From an uncultured Planctomycetia bacterium (GTDB taxonomy: Bacteria; Omnitrophota; Gorgyraeia; Duberdicusellales; 4484-171): DNA of 32,000 nt. The notes under the pieces are model-generated. The model did no database searches. It was given only the letters and a program-made list of their open reading frames with translations, and was not told where the DNA came from. Shown here piece after piece: positions 14,732 to 22,988 of this stretch. The stretch covers positions 1 through 32,000 of the forward strand of contig CAZHYN010000005.1 in NCBI GenBank assembly GCA_964536865.1, given 5' to 3'. The position numbers and the translations under genes are program-made. The first letter of the stretch is position 1. Each line of letters opens with the position of its first letter.

Positions 14732-14849
14732 GCCGGGCGCTGACCTACTCTCCCACCCCCTTGCGAGGACAGTACCATCGGCCCTGGAGGGCTTAACGGC
14801 CGTATTCGGAATGGGAACGGGTGTGGCCCCTCCGGTATGAGCACCCGGC
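14732..14849 (-). rRNA. rrf: 5S rRNA
   Basis: The reverse complement reads gccgggtgctcataccggagggg...cccgttcccattccgaa...gttaagccctcc...gatggtact...gggagagtaggtc...cccggc, canonical 5S. Confidence 0.9.
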
Positions 14850-15033
14850 AGAAAATAATTACAGATTACAAATTACAGATTTATTTTTAATTTGTAATTT
14901 GAAATTGGATAATCTGTAATTTATAGTTTAAGGTTGGGTATCAAGCCGATTGGCCATTAGGAGTGTTCGGCTAAACACGTTACCGTGCTTACACCTGCAC
15001 CCTATCAAGGTCGTAGTCTCCGACCGGCCTTCA

Positions 15034-15322
15034 CCCCGCCCTTTTTATTTTCCCAAAAGAGTAAGAGTATTCTTAATCCTTTTCTTAAGATGTCCTAACG
15101 AAGAACCATACAACTTTAGCTTTTTCTCTCTACTAAAAGCATCTTTTTTAGAAAGATATGCTTCATAATATACCATCACATAATCTTTTTTAGTTTTTTT
15201 ATGTTGCTGAATCCTATCTTTTAAAGAGGAAGTAACTCCTATATAGAAGTGCCTTCTCTTAGGATTAAAAAGGAGATATACATAATACATCTTACCTCCT
15301 TTGGGTATTGAAAAGGGCGGGG
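15034..15322 (-). repeat. hairpin-bounded insertion (IVS) in the 3'-terminal domain of 23S (H98-equivalent tip), carrying a GIY-YIG ORF
   Basis: ccccgcccttttt (15034-15046) pairs with aaaagggcgggg (15311-15322). The flanking sequence aligns with the E. coli region around 2790-2800. The interior is AT-rich and almost entirely ORF. Confidence 0.75.
15045..15290 (-). CDS. small GIY-YIG (URI-domain only, YhbQ/COG2827-like) nuclease-family protein
   Basis: MYYVYLL...RHFYIGVTSSLKDRIQQHKK...YYEAY..K.DAFSREKKLK contains the GIY and YIG motifs and the conserved R/E/K pattern. RBS aaaggaggtaagATG. Same strand as the rRNA. Confidence 0.7.
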   Translation of the reverse strand: MYYVYLLFNPKRRHFYIGVTSSLKDRIQQHKKTKKDYVMVYYEAYLSKKDAFSREKKLKLYGSSLGHLKKRIKNTLTLLGK

Positions 15323-15566
15323 AGGGATCCCTAGTTTTGGGGTGAGCTTCCCGCTTAGATGCCTTCAGCGGTTATCTCCTAGGAACACGGCTACCCAGCC
15401 TTTACCGCTGGCGCAATAGCTGGTACACCGGAGGTTCCTCTGTCCCGGTCCTCTCGTACTAGGGACAGCTCCCCTTCAAGGATCCTTGCACCCACAGTGG
15501 ATAGAGACCGACAATCTGTTACTTTCTCCTACCTCAAAAGTTTTATAATTTAAGGTAGGATACTGA

Positions 15567-15671
15567 CCCAGCCTTTTTTAATTTCTATTTATCTTAAGTA
15601 AAAGATTAATCTTCTTTGCAAAATATTGAAAATAACCGCTGTTTTTTCATAGGTTGAATAAAAAGGCTGGG
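15567..15671 (-). repeat. GC-clamp hairpin insertion nested in the 3' part of the intron at 15512..16423
   Basis: cccagcctttttt (15567-15579) pairs with aaaaaggctggg (15660-15671), with an AT-rich interior. Confidence 0.65.
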
Positions 15672-15734
15672 CGGCCTGACATTTCTGTCAGACTCTCACC
15701 GTCCCCGGTGAGTTCGGACTGTATCTTCCCCACG

Positions 15735-16262
15735 CTACGTTGGGGTCTGGCGTACAGTCTCTGAGGGTTCTAGAAGGAGAAATAACTCCTTAAGTGGTAG
15801 TTTTCTATATCTACCACTGCTATTCATGGAGTGGGCGATTCTTAAAATTTTCTTTAAACCTTCAAGGGTGAGATGAAGTTTCTTCCCCATCATTCTTACC
15901 ACTTCTTTAAACTTCTCAAAATCATCTCTTTTAGAAAAAAGAGAGTATTTTTCAAAAAAAGGAATCACACGTTGTTCTAAATTCTTTAAATCTCGCACCA
16001 CTAACACCCAAGTAAGATCATAGGGATTTCTGGAATGATTAGGTTTAATATACCCACAACCAAGATGTCTCTGGATTAACTCCAACACTTCCTTACGGTT
16101 ACGGTGCTGACACACATGAAACTCAGGAATAACCTGAATTCCTAATCTCACATTCTTACTTCTCTGGATAGAAATGGAGAAACTTCCCTCGCCATCTACA
16201 AAACCGGCGATATAATCGCCCCACTCTCCTTCTAGCCTTCCCTGCTGGTTATCTGCACCCAT
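15735..16262 (-). CDS. single-motif LAGLIDADG homing endonuclease
   Basis: YIAGFVDGEGSFSISI LAGLIDADG motif near the N-terminus, about 175 aa (I-CreI/I-CeuI size class). RBS aggag. Located inside the intron on the rRNA sense strand. Confidence 0.8.
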   Translation of the reverse strand: MGADNQQGRLEGEWGDYIAGFVDGEGSFSISIQRSKNVRLGIQVIPEFHVCQHRNRKEVLELIQRHLGCGYIKPNHSRNPYDLTWVLVVRDLKNLEQRVIPFFEKYSLFSKRDDFEKFKEVVRMMGKKLHLTLEGLKKILRIAHSMNSSGRYRKLPLKELFLLLEPSETVRQTPT

Positions 16263-17070
16263 ATATTTTTACTCCTGACTACTCACCACCCTATTATTTC
16301 AAAGTGGTCCCTTAAAAAAGGGAATCTCTATAGAATAGCATATAGAGACTGAATAATCAAGTAGTAATATGGGATACTCAGACTTCCCAGCATATAGCCA
16401 GATTTATAGACAGCACGGTTCGTACTGTCTCACGACGTTCTGAACCCAGCTCACGTACCCCTTTAACCGGCGAACAGCCGGACCCTTGGGAGCTTCTCCA
16501 CCCCCAGGATGGGATGAGCCGACATCGAGGTGCCAAACCGGGCCGTCGATGTGAACTCTCGGGCCCGATAAGCCTGTTATCCCCGGAGTACCTTTTATCC
16601 GTTGAGCGATGGCGCTCCCACGCGCAACCACCGGATCACTAGGCCCCGCTTTCGCGTCTGCTCGGCCTGTCGGCCTCACAGTCAGGCACCCTTATGCCCT
16701 TACACTCAACGTCCGGTTTCCAATCGGACTGAGGGTACCTTTGGGCTCCTCCGTTACCTTTTAGGAGGAAACCGCCCCAGTTAAACTGCCCAACTGGCAC
16801 TGTCCCCCGACGTAACGTCAGAGTTAGAACCTTAGTACGGTAAGGGTGGTATTTCACTGACGGCTCCCCCCGAACTGGCGTCCGGGGTTCACAGCCTCCC
16901 ACCTATACTACACATACCGGACCAAAATTCAATACCAGCCTGCAGTAAAGGTTCCGGGGTCTTTTCGTCCAACTGCGGGTAGGCGGCATCTTCACCGCCA
17001 CTACAATTTCGCCGGCTGCCTCCCCGAGACAGCGCTCCCGTTGTTAAACCTTTCGTGCGGGTCGGAACTT

Positions 17071-17444
17071 CACCTTAATCTTGGTGTTTCCACCAAGGGT
17101 GGACTATACCTTCACCCCACCCTTTCTATCCACGCAAATTAATTGAAACTGAGTAATTTTTAAGATACTTAACCAAACGAAAATATCCTCTTCCTCTTAA
17201 ATTAGGTGTTTAGAAAGAGTGGGGGCCGGCGTATTAGCCATCCTTTAATTTGAGTTCTTAGAACTCATAAGATGGCTCCCTTCCCTTAAAAGAGAAGGAG
17301 TCTCTACGGGGTCATCAAGGAAAAAATTCCCTTTAGACTTCCCTCGGGATTACCCAGTATTCTCAAAAGAATCCTTAGGGCTTTCCCGATATGAGCCGGT
17401 GTTTCATCCCAATTTGCATTGGGAAGGGGCAAGTTTAAAAACTT
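17071..17444 (-). mobile_element. ORF-less group I intron in 23S after U1951-equivalent (GUCGGGU|AAGUUCC)
   Basis: Exon ...tagtcgggt | aagtttttaaacttgccc (P1 helix with U-G at the splice site) ... gaaggtatagtcc ... gattaaggtg | aagttccgacccgcacgaa. The intron ends in G and has no ORF. Confidence 0.7.
17115..17245 (-). repeat. GC-clamp hairpin insertion nested in the intron at 17071..17444 (immediately 5' of the aaggtatagtcc element)
   Basis: ccccaccctttcta (17115-17128) pairs with tagaaagagtggggg (17231-17245). The single non-Watson-Crick position is a G-U wobble only in the rRNA-sense transcript. Confidence 0.65.
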
Positions 17445-21399: not shown

Positions 21400-21499
21400 C
21401 CCAGCCCTTTTTATTCCCTGATTAATACAAATTATTGAAAATTTAATTAAAGATACAGCACTTTATCATTTCTTTAATCAAAGTATAAAAAGGGCTGGG
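21400..21499 (-). repeat. intervening sequence in 16S helix 39-equivalent
   Basis: cccagccctttttat pairs with ataaaaagggctggg (15 bp) around an AT-rich loop of about 70 nt, between gttgctac and cactctaagg. Confidence 0.7.
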
Positions 21500-22158
21500 T
21501 AGCAACTAAGGGCGAGGGTTGCGCTCGTTCTCCCACTTAAGGGAACACCTCACGGCACGAGCTGACGACAGCCATGCAGCACCTGTGCAGGTTCCCGACT
21601 GGATACGGGTGGCAACCCCTTTCGGAGCGCTACTACCTACATGTCAAGCCCTGGTAAGGTTCCTCGCGTAGCATCGAATTAAACCACGTGTTCCACCGCT
21701 TGTGCGGGCCCCCGTCAATTCCTTTGAGTTTTAGCCTTGCGGCCGTAGTCCCCAGGTGGGGCACTTAACGCGTTAGCTTCGGCACCCCCCTAAAATAGAG
21801 GGACACCTAGTGCCCATCGTTTACAGCTAGGACTACCAGGGTATCTAATCCTGTTTGCTCCCCTAGCTTTCGTCCCTGAGCGTCAGGACTGAACCAGAGA
21901 GCCGCCTTCGCCACAGGCGTTCCTGCCGATATCCACAGATTTCACCCTTACACCGGCAGTTCCGCTCTCCTCTTCCAGCCTCGAAGCCAAGCAGTTTGAA
22001 AGGCACTTTCCCGGTTAAGCCGGGAGATTTCACCTTCCACTTACTTGGCCGCCTGCGGACCCTTTACACCCAGTCAAACCGAGTAACGCTAGGTGCCTCC
22101 GTATTACCGCGGCTGCTGGCACGGAGTTAGCCGCACCTTATTCATCGGGTACAGTCAG

Positions 22159-22185
22159 TCCCACCCTTTTATTAAAAGGGTGGGA
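22159..22185 (-). repeat. 'empty' GC-clamp hairpin at 16S helix 17-equivalent tip
   Basis: tcccaccctttt-att-aaaagggtggga. Confidence 0.6.
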
Positions 22186-22426
22186 TTTCCTCCCCGATAA
22201 AAGGGGTTTACACGCCGAAGCGCTTCATCCCCCACGCGGCGTCGCATCCTCAGGCTTTCGCCCATTGGGAAAGATTCTCGACTGCAGCCTCCCGTAGGAG
22301 TCCGGGCAGTGTCTCAGTCCCGGTGTGGCTGACCACACACTAATGCCAGCTACCCGTCTTAGGCTTGGTAGGCCATTACCCTACCAACTACCTGATAGGA
22401 CGTGAGCCGCTCTTGGAGCGGCAGCA

Positions 22427-22532
22427 TCCCGCCTTTTTTACTCAGGGAAATATATTAAAGAAAACTCTCTCTTCTCTGTCCCTCTTCCCACAATACAATT
22501 CTTTCCTCTCAAAGGTGTATAAAAAGGCGGGA
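22427..22532 (-). repeat. intervening sequence in 16S helix 10-equivalent
   Basis: tcccgcctttttta pairs with taaaaaaggcggga (14 bp) around an AT-rich loop of about 79 nt. Confidence 0.7.
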
Positions 22533-22655
22533 GAGGCCACCTTTACTCCTAAGACATCTCAGTCTCAGGAGACCATGGGGTATTACCTCCGATTTCTCGA
22601 AGCTATCCCCCTCTCCAAGGTACGTTACCCACGCATTACTCACCCGTTTGCCGCT

Positions 22656-22768
22656 ATCCCACCCTTTCTACTACCCCCAATAAAGACTTTAAGAAATGAA
22701 CTAAACCTTACTTCTTACCTTAAACTCGGTTTCCTTCTCAATAAAGGGAGTAATAAAAAGGGCGGGAT
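22656..22768 (-). repeat. intervening sequence in 16S helix 6-equivalent
   Basis: In the sense transcript, atcccgcccttttt pairs with agaaagggtgggat (14 bp including two G-U wobbles) around an AT-rich loop of about 84 nt. It lies just after gcatgcaagtcgagcg. Confidence 0.7.
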
Positions 22769-22988
22769 CGCTCGACTTGCATGCCTTATCCACGCCGCCA
22801 GCGTTCACTCTGAGCCAGGATCAAACCCTCCAAAGGCTTTTTTCTTTTCAGTCAAAGAGCAAGCGATAAAAAAAGCATCCTCTCTTTTCTTTAGGATGCT
22901 TTAAAAACAATTCTCTATTTAAATTTAAGAAGTAATCTGCTTTTTCTGTGTCAAAGAAAGGTTGCTCTCATCACCTTGGCAATATATT

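Follow-up and report, generated by a model that had tools for sequence, protein, structure and literature searches.

An interrupted rRNA operon

The 32,000-nt stretch of contig CAZHYN010000005.1 that we analyzed (the window) carries a complete bacterial ribosomal RNA (rRNA) operon on its minus strand, with genes for 16S rRNA, tRNA-Ile, tRNA-Ala, 23S rRNA, and 5S rRNA as identified by Rfam and ARAGORN. The 16S and 23S genes are interrupted by three group I introns and by eight copies of a hairpin-ended element, one of which contains an open reading frame (ORF) for a small GIY-YIG protein. We think that this nuclease and the hairpin ends of the elements probably belong together. The genes and introns of the operon are as follows.

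21011-22836, minus strand: 16S rRNA gene, 1826 nt (1506 nt of exon without its three elements)
20813-20885, minus strand: tRNA-Ile(GAU), found by ARAGORN and Rfam
20575-20649, minus strand: tRNA-Ala(UGC), found by ARAGORN and Rfam
14930-20341, minus strand: 23S rRNA gene, 5412 nt (2935 nt of exon), from blastn blocks, the Rfam LSU match (2322 bits), and a covariance model (CM) of the 3' domain
17473-18260, minus strand: group I intron 1, site L1923, 788 nt, after U1923 and with a terminal G
17071-17444, minus strand: group I intron 2, site L1951, 374 nt and no ORF, after U1951 and with a terminal G
15512-16423, minus strand: group I intron 3, site L2604, 912 nt, after U2604 and with its terminal G at 15512
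14732-14848, minus strand: 5S rRNA (Rfam, 96.2 bits)

The exons were mapped with blastn against rrlH and rrsH of Escherichia coli K-12 (locus L002), and all positions marked Ec, as well as the numbers in intron sites such as L1923, follow E. coli numbering. The 16S gene matches the Rfam model SSU_rRNA_bacteria with 1472.5 bits over model positions 1-1533 and aligns in blocks with rrsH. The blocks against rrlH are collinear: Ec 1-1924 corresponds to 20339-18260 of the window, 1924-1956 to 17472-17440, 1952-2607 to 17070-16421, 2605-2790 to 15511-15323, and 2807-2885 to 15033-14955. A CM run on 14900-16700 only aligned model positions 2354-2889 and placed insertions of 914 nt and 283 nt at the same two places as blastn, with the 914-nt insertion about 7 nt upstream of the junction that we adopted for intron 3. 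Altogether, the 16S and 23S genes contain 2797 nt of inserted DNA. The spacings between insertion sites are 28 nt (from 1923 to 1951), 653 nt (from 1951 to 2604), and about 190 nt (from 2604 to helix 98). The GC content is 57.5% in the 16S exons, 55.6% in the 23S exons, and 66.7% in the 5S gene, whereas it is 33.3% and 34.7% for the flanking genes and ranges from 27% to 41% for the insertions.

Much of this had been anticipated by a model that saw only the sequence (the original prediction). It gave 5415 bp for the 23S gene and 1825 bp for the 16S gene, about 2.95 kb and about 1.5 kb of exon that align block by block with E. coli, about 2.8 kb of insertions, spacings of 28, about 650, and about 190 nt, and GC-rich exons amid AT-rich genes and insertion interiors; all of these values are close to ours. 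The regional CM, too, placed its two insertions where we did, apart from the 7-nt offset just mentioned. The original prediction also saw the composition as typical of thermophiles or of strong structural selection, and the first of these fits the source of the DNA, as one strain that is about 95% identical to the window is from a hydrothermal-vent metagenome. In terms of base composition, GC-rich rRNA in a genome of low GC content would agree with growth as a thermophile.

In the whole window, Rfam reports an LSU match at 16353-20339 that is labeled complete (model 1-2925), but the E. coli blocks and the regional CM indicate that this is an artefact. The match ends 1.4 kb before the true 3' end, so automatic annotation would truncate the 23S gene.

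Eight elements with one set of arms

Seven of the eight elements are ORF-less and are 100-113 nt long. The eighth, in 23S helix 98 (H98), is 292 nt and is nearly filled by the ORF for the 81-amino-acid GIY-YIG protein. Five copies are at the tips of rRNA helices (16S helices h6, h10, and h39 and 23S helices H45 and H98) and one is nested within each intron. There are also two bare hairpins with the same arms.

22657-22767, minus strand: ORF-less element at the tip of 16S helix 6 (Ec 68-100); arms ATCCCGCCCTTTTT / AGAAAGGGTGGGAT; 23-bp basal stem, z -5.4
22427-22531, minus strand: ORF-less element in 16S helix 10 (Ec ~196-219); arms CCCGCCTTTTT / AAAAAAGGCGGG
22159-22185, minus strand: bare hairpin with family arms in 16S helix 17; TCCCACCCTTTTA A TAAAAGGGTGGGA, a perfect 13-nt inverted repeat
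21400-21499, minus strand: ORF-less element at the tip of 16S helix 39, V7 region (Ec ~1128-1142); arms CCCAGCCCTTTTTAT / ATAAAAAGGGCTGGG; 26-nt inverted repeat, 88% complementary, fold z -6.2
18977-19087, minus strand: ORF-less element in 23S helix 45; 14-nt perfect arms CCCAGCCCTTTCTA / TAGAAAGGGCTGGG
18427-18454, minus strand: bare hairpin with family arms in 23S helix 63; CCCCGCCCTTTCT AA AGAAAGGGCGGGG
17500-17600, minus strand: ORF-less element as P8 of intron 1; 14-nt perfect arms TCCCGCCCTTTTTA / TAAAAAGGGCGGGA
17114-17225, minus strand: ORF-less element as P8 of intron 2; arms CCCCACUCU / AGGGUGGGG, which form the P8 stem in the Rfam alignment and in the fold
15567-15671, minus strand: ORF-less element in the P9 region of intron 3; arms CCCAGCCTTTTTA / TAAAAAAGGCTGGG
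15031-15322, minus strand: ORF-bearing element in 23S helix 98; arms CCCCGCCCTTTT / AAAAGGGCGGGG; a 283-nt insertion in the H98 loop according to the CM

The arms of the family can be summarized as 5'-CCC(G/A)(C/G)CCTTT(T/C)T(A) ... (T)A(A/G)AAAGG(G)(C/T)(G/T)GGG-3'. In an alignment of the family, the arms are conserved across copies and the interiors are not. The arm motif CCNNCCYTTTYT has 14 matches in the window, all of them within the operon, while 1.4 would be expected. Every element folds as a long stem-loop (z from -2.9 to -6.2). For example, the element in H45 has a 14-bp perfect basal stem, so that the tip of the helix is replaced by an extended stem-loop, and the other elements are similar.

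The original prediction had counted three kinds of interruption in this operon: group I introns, an intervening sequence (IVS) with an ORF, and ORF-less IVSs. These do coexist, but the ORF-bearing and ORF-less IVSs share their arms and are one family, so there are two classes of intruders and not three. The insertions that it listed all hold. The three copies that are nested within introns had not been counted as separate insertions and must be added to its inventory. That short ORF-less copies and one protein-coding copy have terminal inverted repeats in common is what is expected of MITEs (miniature transposable elements with inverted repeats) that have an autonomous partner.

We also considered whether a stretch of about 80 nt after Ec 278 (window 19989-20068), which is extra relative to E. 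coli, might be another insertion. It is not AT-rich and has no arms. Because it is common to the related genomes described below, we view it as a native feature of the lineage.

Ordinary hairpins at the same sites in relatives

Using a cluster member of the intron-1 endonuclease, we found four rRNA loci (L103-L106) from related Omnitrophota. In the exons, they are 79-93% identical to the window, and L103 is syntenic, with xseA downstream. The arm motif, the GIY-YIG ORF, and the intron at L2604 are all absent from these four loci.

At all seven of the sites that we compared (those of six of the eight copies and of the bare hairpin in H63), the relatives have ordinary short hairpins. These are 51 nt in h6, 23 nt in h10, and 22 nt in h39 (L105); 28 nt in H45 (L103 and L105); 38 nt of a different sequence in H63; 28 nt in P8 of intron 1; and, in L103, 20 nt in H98 (CCCCGAACTTTTGTTCGGGG). 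The flanks of the seven sites are largely conserved, and at intron-1 P8 and H98 they are identical. Since short hairpins lie between conserved flanks in the relatives, it appears that the elements replace the distal part of a hairpin instead of simply being inserted. P8 of intron 1 is the cleanest case of replacement because the background is 95% identical.

The introns also differ between these genomes. The relatives contain an ORF-bearing L1951 intron of 731 nt and a LAGLIDADG_2 intron near position 2450, and in L103 a region of about 1.5 kb around 1917-1923 has two LAGLIDADG ORFs. In L014, one of the strains that are about 95% identical to the window, we see the 3' end of an extra group I intron at L2449 (L014:1-229), which is absent from the window (compare 16590-16565), and the exon resumes with AACAGGCTTATCGGG. 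P8 of this intron is an element of about 110 nt with the arms CCCCGCCCTTTCTA / TAGAAAGGGCGGGG. Given these differences in L103-L106 and in L014, the content of introns and elements must be fluid.

A small GIY-YIG nuclease fills the longest element

The ORF of the H98 element (15045-15290, minus strand) is in the same sense as the rRNA and encodes a single-domain GIY-YIG protein of 81 amino acids (Pfam PF01541, 38.6 bits versus a cut-off of 22.6). Y5, Y16, R26, H30, and E55 are invariant across 31 homologues. On the basis of its sequence, we expect that it is an active nuclease. The protein is a bare catalytic domain, without a DNA-binding module. Its AlphaFold model has a pLDDT of 93.7, and the best PDB matches by Foldseek are the UPF0213 protein BH0048, Slx1, and the catalytic domain of I-TevI. 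A profile search of the PDB ranks the relatives in the same way, with BH0048 as the nearest solved structure (E = 1.8e-8), while a PDB search with the single 81-amino-acid sequence found nothing significant. By hhalign, the protein matches YhbQ from E. coli over its N-terminal half with 95% probability. NCBIfam has no specific family for it; its best match, which is far under the cut-off, is a family of group I intron endonucleases.

When the H98 element (15031-15322) is folded in silico, the Shine-Dalgarno sequence (AAGGAGG) and the ATG of this ORF are predicted to be paired to the ORF's own 3' end. With this predicted pairing, translation from the rRNA precursor would be restrained.

The nuclease is associated with arms across metagenomes

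The nuclease belongs to a large family, with 221 word-indexed matches and 1,749 clusters (at 50% identity, E <= 1e-10). The named members are from Omnitrophica and from several phyla of the candidate phyla radiation (CPR). A scan of metagenomes found 562 relatives, and we analyzed the best 80 loci.

We considered an ORF to be bracketed if an inverted repeat that scored at least 10 lay tightly around it, and we used permuted pairs of flanks as the control. By this measure, 65 of 79 loci are bracketed, as compared to 40 of 387 permuted pairs. In locus L016, an ORF that is 62% identical to that of the window lies between protein-coding genes on a 106-kb contig and is bracketed by CCCCGCCCTTTCT / AGAAAGGGCGGGG, as in the window. 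Across the metagenome loci the arms are of lineage-specific types (ACCCCGCCC, ACCCAGCAC, ACCGAGCAC, CCCCCACAC, and GCCCCTCAC), and the changes are on both sides. Furthermore, extra ORF-less pairs with the locus's own type of arm are present in 16 of 62 loci, and these are mostly 96-116 nt; with foreign types of arm, the figure is 8 of 620.

The homologues are often in rRNA genes. There is rRNA in or beside 21 of the 80 loci, and in 13 the ORF lies between two blocks of rRNA, always in the same sense. In 23S rRNA, the homologues are in H25, at about Ec 262-291, in H63 and H68, and after about Ec 2181. In 16S rRNA, they are in h6 and h17, in the gap at Ec 1126-1174, at the tip of h44, upstream of Ec 243, and in the 16S leader. 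Across all of our data, the preferred sites of the elements are H25, H45, H63, H68, about Ec 2200, and H98 of the 23S and h6, h10, h17, h39, and h44 of the 16S, and many of these coincide with known positions of expansion segments.

We also noticed several features of the copies outside of rRNA. First, a perfect DnaA box (TTATCCACA) is often within about 100 nt of them (L016, L022, L023, L028, L035, L050, L073, L097, and others). There are 19 DnaA boxes in 294 kb of homologue loci, as compared to 3.2 in shuffled sequences (maximum 10), so these copies may be located near oriC. Second, many of them share asymmetric flanks of the form cTTTA|arm...arm|T(G/T)CTCA, followed by more hairpins (L023, L024, L049, L050, L052, L088, L091, L092, L095, and others). 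These asymmetric flanks outside the arms imply that the element has an orientation, as has been reported for Ssn repeats. Third, L016 also encodes a free-standing 23S_rRNA_IVP protein (PF05635; L016:13703-14080), which is the type of ORF that is found in classical IVSs.

The group I introns and their endonucleases

We set the intron junctions using E. coli numbering and the rule that the 5' exon of a group I intron ends with U and the intron ends with G, and all three introns conform. Intron 2 matches Rfam Intron_gpI (RF00028) with 53.7 bits, which is over the gathering score of 50. Introns 3 (30.6 bits, E = 1e-4) and 1 (13 bits, E = 1.5) score below it because each contains a large ORF that the model does not bridge. 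P1, P3, P4, P7, P8, and P9 could all be located in introns 1 and 3. The helices that we placed are as follows.

Intron 1, minus strand: P1 18266-18261/18239-18234; P3 18227-18222/17606-17601; P4 18216-18212/18156-18152; P7 17614-17609/17494-17489; P9 17488-17473
Intron 3, minus strand: P1 16429-16424/16414-16409; P3 16402-16397/15751-15746; P4 16391-16387/16248-16244; P7 15759-15754/15722-15717; P8 15745-15728

The two introns show compensatory differences in P3 (CCUGGC/GCCAGG in intron 1 versus UCUGGC/GCCAGA in intron 3) and in P7 (GACCAU/AUGGUC versus GACUGU/ACAGUC), and the guide sequence of each one pairs with its own exon.

Each of these introns encodes a LAGLIDADG protein of the single-domain type (PF00961), with one LAGLIDADG_1 stretch, and the two proteins are 43% identical.

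17530-18132, minus strand: LAGLIDADG ORF of intron 1, 200 amino acids from an ATG after GGAGG, or 216 amino acids from a GTG at 18180; PF00961, 1.4e-23
15735-16262, minus strand: LAGLIDADG ORF of intron 3, 175 amino acids; PF00961, 2.2e-22

Their relatives in the PDB include single halves of I-OnuI and I-SmaMI and also I-CeuI, whose target is the 1923 site. Judging from these features, the introns presumably self-splice and spread by means of their LAGLIDADG enzymes. In L103-L106, intron 1 (window 18248-17601) is about 95% identical to that of the window, which is above the 79-93% identity of the flanking exons and suggests a recent transfer of this intron.

Is the operon real, and whose is it?

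The source contig was assembled from a metagenome (ENA ERZ27248455, k141_481698). Two other runs each yielded a Logan contig with 100% identity to the window, one (L012) over 19176-18267, where the H45 element lies, and the other (L004) over 15375-6271, where the H98 element lies. Also, intron 3 and the H98 element are both present in each of the strains at about 95% identity (L014 and L015). One Logan contig ends 6 nt before the intron-1 junction and might have come from an allele without intron 1, but its end is not at the exact point of divergence, so it is uninformative.

The cluster mates of the neighboring proteins, at 90% identity or more, are from named metagenome-assembled genomes (MAGs) of Candidatus Omnitrophota. 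The best relative of XseA (66% identity) is also from an Omnitrophota MAG, and the name of its scaffold, B7_Guay16, suggests the Guaymas Basin. (In genome contigs with relatives of xseA there was no rRNA beside the gene, so we used these for taxonomy only.) That the operon works is suggested by the high CM scores (2322 bits for 23S and 1472 bits for 16S) and by its intact core. Going by its sequence, this is most likely a working rRNA operon of a hydrothermal Candidatus Omnitrophota bacterium.

Two other features are outside the mature rRNAs. Runs of the heptamer ATTACAR lie on both sides of the 23S gene (20372-20430 and 14857-14925) and are complementary to each other; they are probably the processing stem of the 23S rRNA. 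In L014, there are 642 extra nt, with a called ORF of 75 amino acids, between 5S and xseA (L014:2126-2767), and these are bounded by a repeat of about 60 nt that corresponds to window 14753-14694.

How might the elements have arisen?

We favor the view that a working operon has been colonized by two classes of selfish DNA, namely group I introns and nuclease-linked hairpin elements that overwrite the tips of helices, and we think that this is probably correct, although we are far from certain. The three introns would leave the transcript by self-splicing, and the two paralogous single-domain LAGLIDADG enzymes would spread their own introns by cutting intron-less alleles. Each hairpin element would replace the distal part of a pre-existing surface hairpin. 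Because its arms would continue the helix of the host, the rRNA and the ribozymes could still fold. The extension might either be retained as an expansion or be removed by an RNase III-type enzyme. As for how the elements move, the GIY-YIG nuclease may recognize the arms as a DNA hairpin or a cruciform and then cause elements of both kinds, ORF-bearing and miniature, to be copied into other DNA that codes for hairpins. Such copying would be analogous to that of Ssn/SRM and of REP-associated transposases. More speculatively, the concentration of elements in rRNA and the possible link to DnaA boxes would agree with a bias toward DNA that is frequently single stranded.

Several points weigh against this explanation. 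The functional link between nuclease and arms is something that we infer, and so are the splicing of the introns, the excision of the IVSs, and the absence of a second operon. We saw no target-site duplication when we compared filled and empty sites, which is odd for an ordinary transposon, and it is similarly odd that a motif search found no copy in the 23.6 kb of non-rRNA DNA within the window. When we compared the interiors of the miniatures with the ORF-bearing copy, we found no significant similarity (z <= 1.8), so we do not claim that the miniatures are deletion derivatives of it. Finally, the relatives have diverged from the window by 7-21%, so a "replaced" rRNA hairpin is just a proxy for the ancestral state, and only intron-1 P8 can be compared on a 95% identical background.

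Alternatively, these might be ordinary IVSs that are processed by an RNase III-type enzyme. The arms would then be a processing signal, either convergent or homogenized for each helix, and the GIY-YIG gene would be an unrelated passenger. The elements do lie at the tips of helices, including H45, which is a classical IVS site; their long perfect stems would suit RNase III; and within the window, the arm motif is confined to the rRNA operon. But the same arms bracket GIY-YIG ORFs in intergenic DNA, away from rRNA, in other organisms. And while the arms vary by lineage, they still bracket the nuclease ORF, and a locus's own arms recur on neighboring ORF-less copies. Introns contain arms as well, although it is not obvious what purpose a processing signal would serve there, and the relatives that lack all of the copies also lack the nuclease gene. 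So we consider ordinary IVSs to be an unlikely explanation.

It seems more doubtful still that the GIY-YIG protein acts as a homing endonuclease of the conventional, site-specific kind, with H98 as its one site, and that the ORF-less insertions arose independently. GIY-YIG is a known fold of homing endonucleases, and the best NCBIfam match, weak as it is, is to such enzymes from group I introns. However, the protein is a bare catalytic domain of 81 amino acids without a DNA-binding module, and its homologues occupy at least 12 positions in rRNA as well as sites outside of rRNA whose flanks are not conserved. Also, the insertion replaces a hairpin and does not split a conserved target, and the ORF-less copies have the same arms.

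We give very little credence to an assembly chimera or a decaying pseudo-operon that is backed by another copy: this is a metagenome contig, rRNA regions often misassemble, and a Logan contig does break 6 nt before the intron-1 junction, but two of the elements lie in stretches where independent assemblies agree at 100% identity, intron 3 and the H98 element recur in related strains, the CM matches are full length and high scoring, the exons align block by block with E. coli, and their GC content is high, unlike that of the insertions.

Returning to the explanation of two selfish classes, we can ask if the hairpin elements form a class of mobile element that has not been described before. It would consist of a bare GIY-YIG nuclease, similar to Slx1 and UPF0213, within its own arms, along with miniatures of about 100 nt, and it would overwrite the tips of hairpin-coding sequences, mainly in rRNA, at the helices where eukaryotes have expansion segments, and in the peripheral helices of group I introns. 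We suggest this tentatively, and we would not yet wager on it. If it is true, then these elements are a natural generator of rRNA IVSs and of expansion segments in Omnitrophota and in CPR bacteria. They could also be used as a model system for the growth of rRNA through additions to the tips of its helices. And if the nuclease recognizes its arms as the Ssn enzymes recognize theirs, then the 1,749 clusters would be a large pool of nuclease/hairpin specificities.

Whatever their origin, dense interruption of rRNA genes, which was thought to be typical of CPR bacteria, is also found in Omnitrophota, and the content of introns and elements changes rapidly between close relatives. Surveys of 16S and 23S genes can miss genes that are interrupted in this way.

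Comparison with known systems

The IVSs that are classically known from helices 25 and 45 of 23S rRNA, in Salmonella, Leptospira, and Coxiella, are excised by RNase III without ligation. The elements in the window resemble these in being at helix tips, including H45, and in their extended stems, AT-rich interiors, and sporadic distribution, and also in that some of them have an ORF. But the ORF of classical IVSs encodes a four-helix protein (S23p/23S_rRNA_IVP) and not a GIY-YIG nuclease. In addition, the copies in the window are found in 16S rRNA, H98, H63, and introns as well, with one arm sequence throughout.

The 23S gene of Coxiella burnetii contains one IVS along with two group I introns, at L1917 and L1951. 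This is the same combination, in a single 23S gene from outside the CPR, and the site L1951 is in common. The window differs in having three introns and eight hairpin elements, an interrupted 16S gene, a GIY-YIG ORF, and elements that are nested within introns. The paper on the Coxiella IVS is cited in a survey of rRNA genes from CPR bacteria (2024, PMC11270868).

That survey is the closest precedent for the density of interruptions. It reported many insertions per gene, with group I introns that encode single-domain LAGLIDADG_1 proteins at 23S positions 1952 and 2604, GIY-YIG ORFs only in insertions that are not introns, and many short uncharacterized insertions (under 200 bp) at helix tips; it credits its reference 2 with the first report of these protein families. 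The window shares the dense insertions, the sites of the 23S introns, and the GIY-YIG ORF in a non-intron insertion. The differences are that the host is a member of Omnitrophota and that shared arms, the replacement of hairpins, and nesting in introns link the GIY-YIG insertion to the short ones. The survey could not fit the short and the GIY-YIG-bearing insertions into a homing model (PMC11270868). Our results offer a testable origin for both.

REP/BIME sequences with their RAYT transposases, IS200/IS605, MITEs, and the palindromic elements of Rickettsia are similar in another way. In these systems, too, there are short, palindromic, non-autonomous copies and one coding copy with matching ends, hairpin DNA is the feature that is recognized, and insertions are tolerated inside functional genes. 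In contrast, these systems rely on HUH/Y1 or DDE transposases, while in the window we find a GIY-YIG protein, no target-site duplication, replacement of the hairpin, and a preference for genes of structured RNAs.

The Ssn proteins are single-domain GIY-YIG nucleases that act on single-stranded DNA and are associated with SRM/NTS hairpin repeats (Chenal et al. 2025, PMC11893778); rRNA is not mentioned in that paper. We compared Ssn by its published description and by the SRM consensus, and this system is the nearest analogue in terms of mechanism, with several features in common: single-domain GIY-YIG proteins of about 80-95 amino acids, flanking inverted repeats that form hairpins, many ORF-less copies, lineage-specific pairs, and an architecture like that of insertion sequences. 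However, Ssn genes have a complete small hairpin in each flank and an oriented, conserved upstream motif, while in the window the arms are on opposite sides and the ORF is the loop. Also, the nearest solved relatives of the window's protein are UPF0213 and Slx1. The SRM consensus, HGTCWYN(0-2)YYVSBRHN(0-5)WNVSBRGN(0-2)RNCYNB, has no match in the window and one match in the 294 kb of homologue loci, as in the shuffled control.

We searched the literature for introns in the rRNA of Omnitrophota and for GIY-YIG elements that are associated with hairpins, MITEs, or rRNA, and no system closer than these came up. Heavily interrupted rRNA genes were already known from CPR bacteria. The hairpin-swapping element with its linked nuclease, and the fact that it occurs in Omnitrophota, appear to be new.

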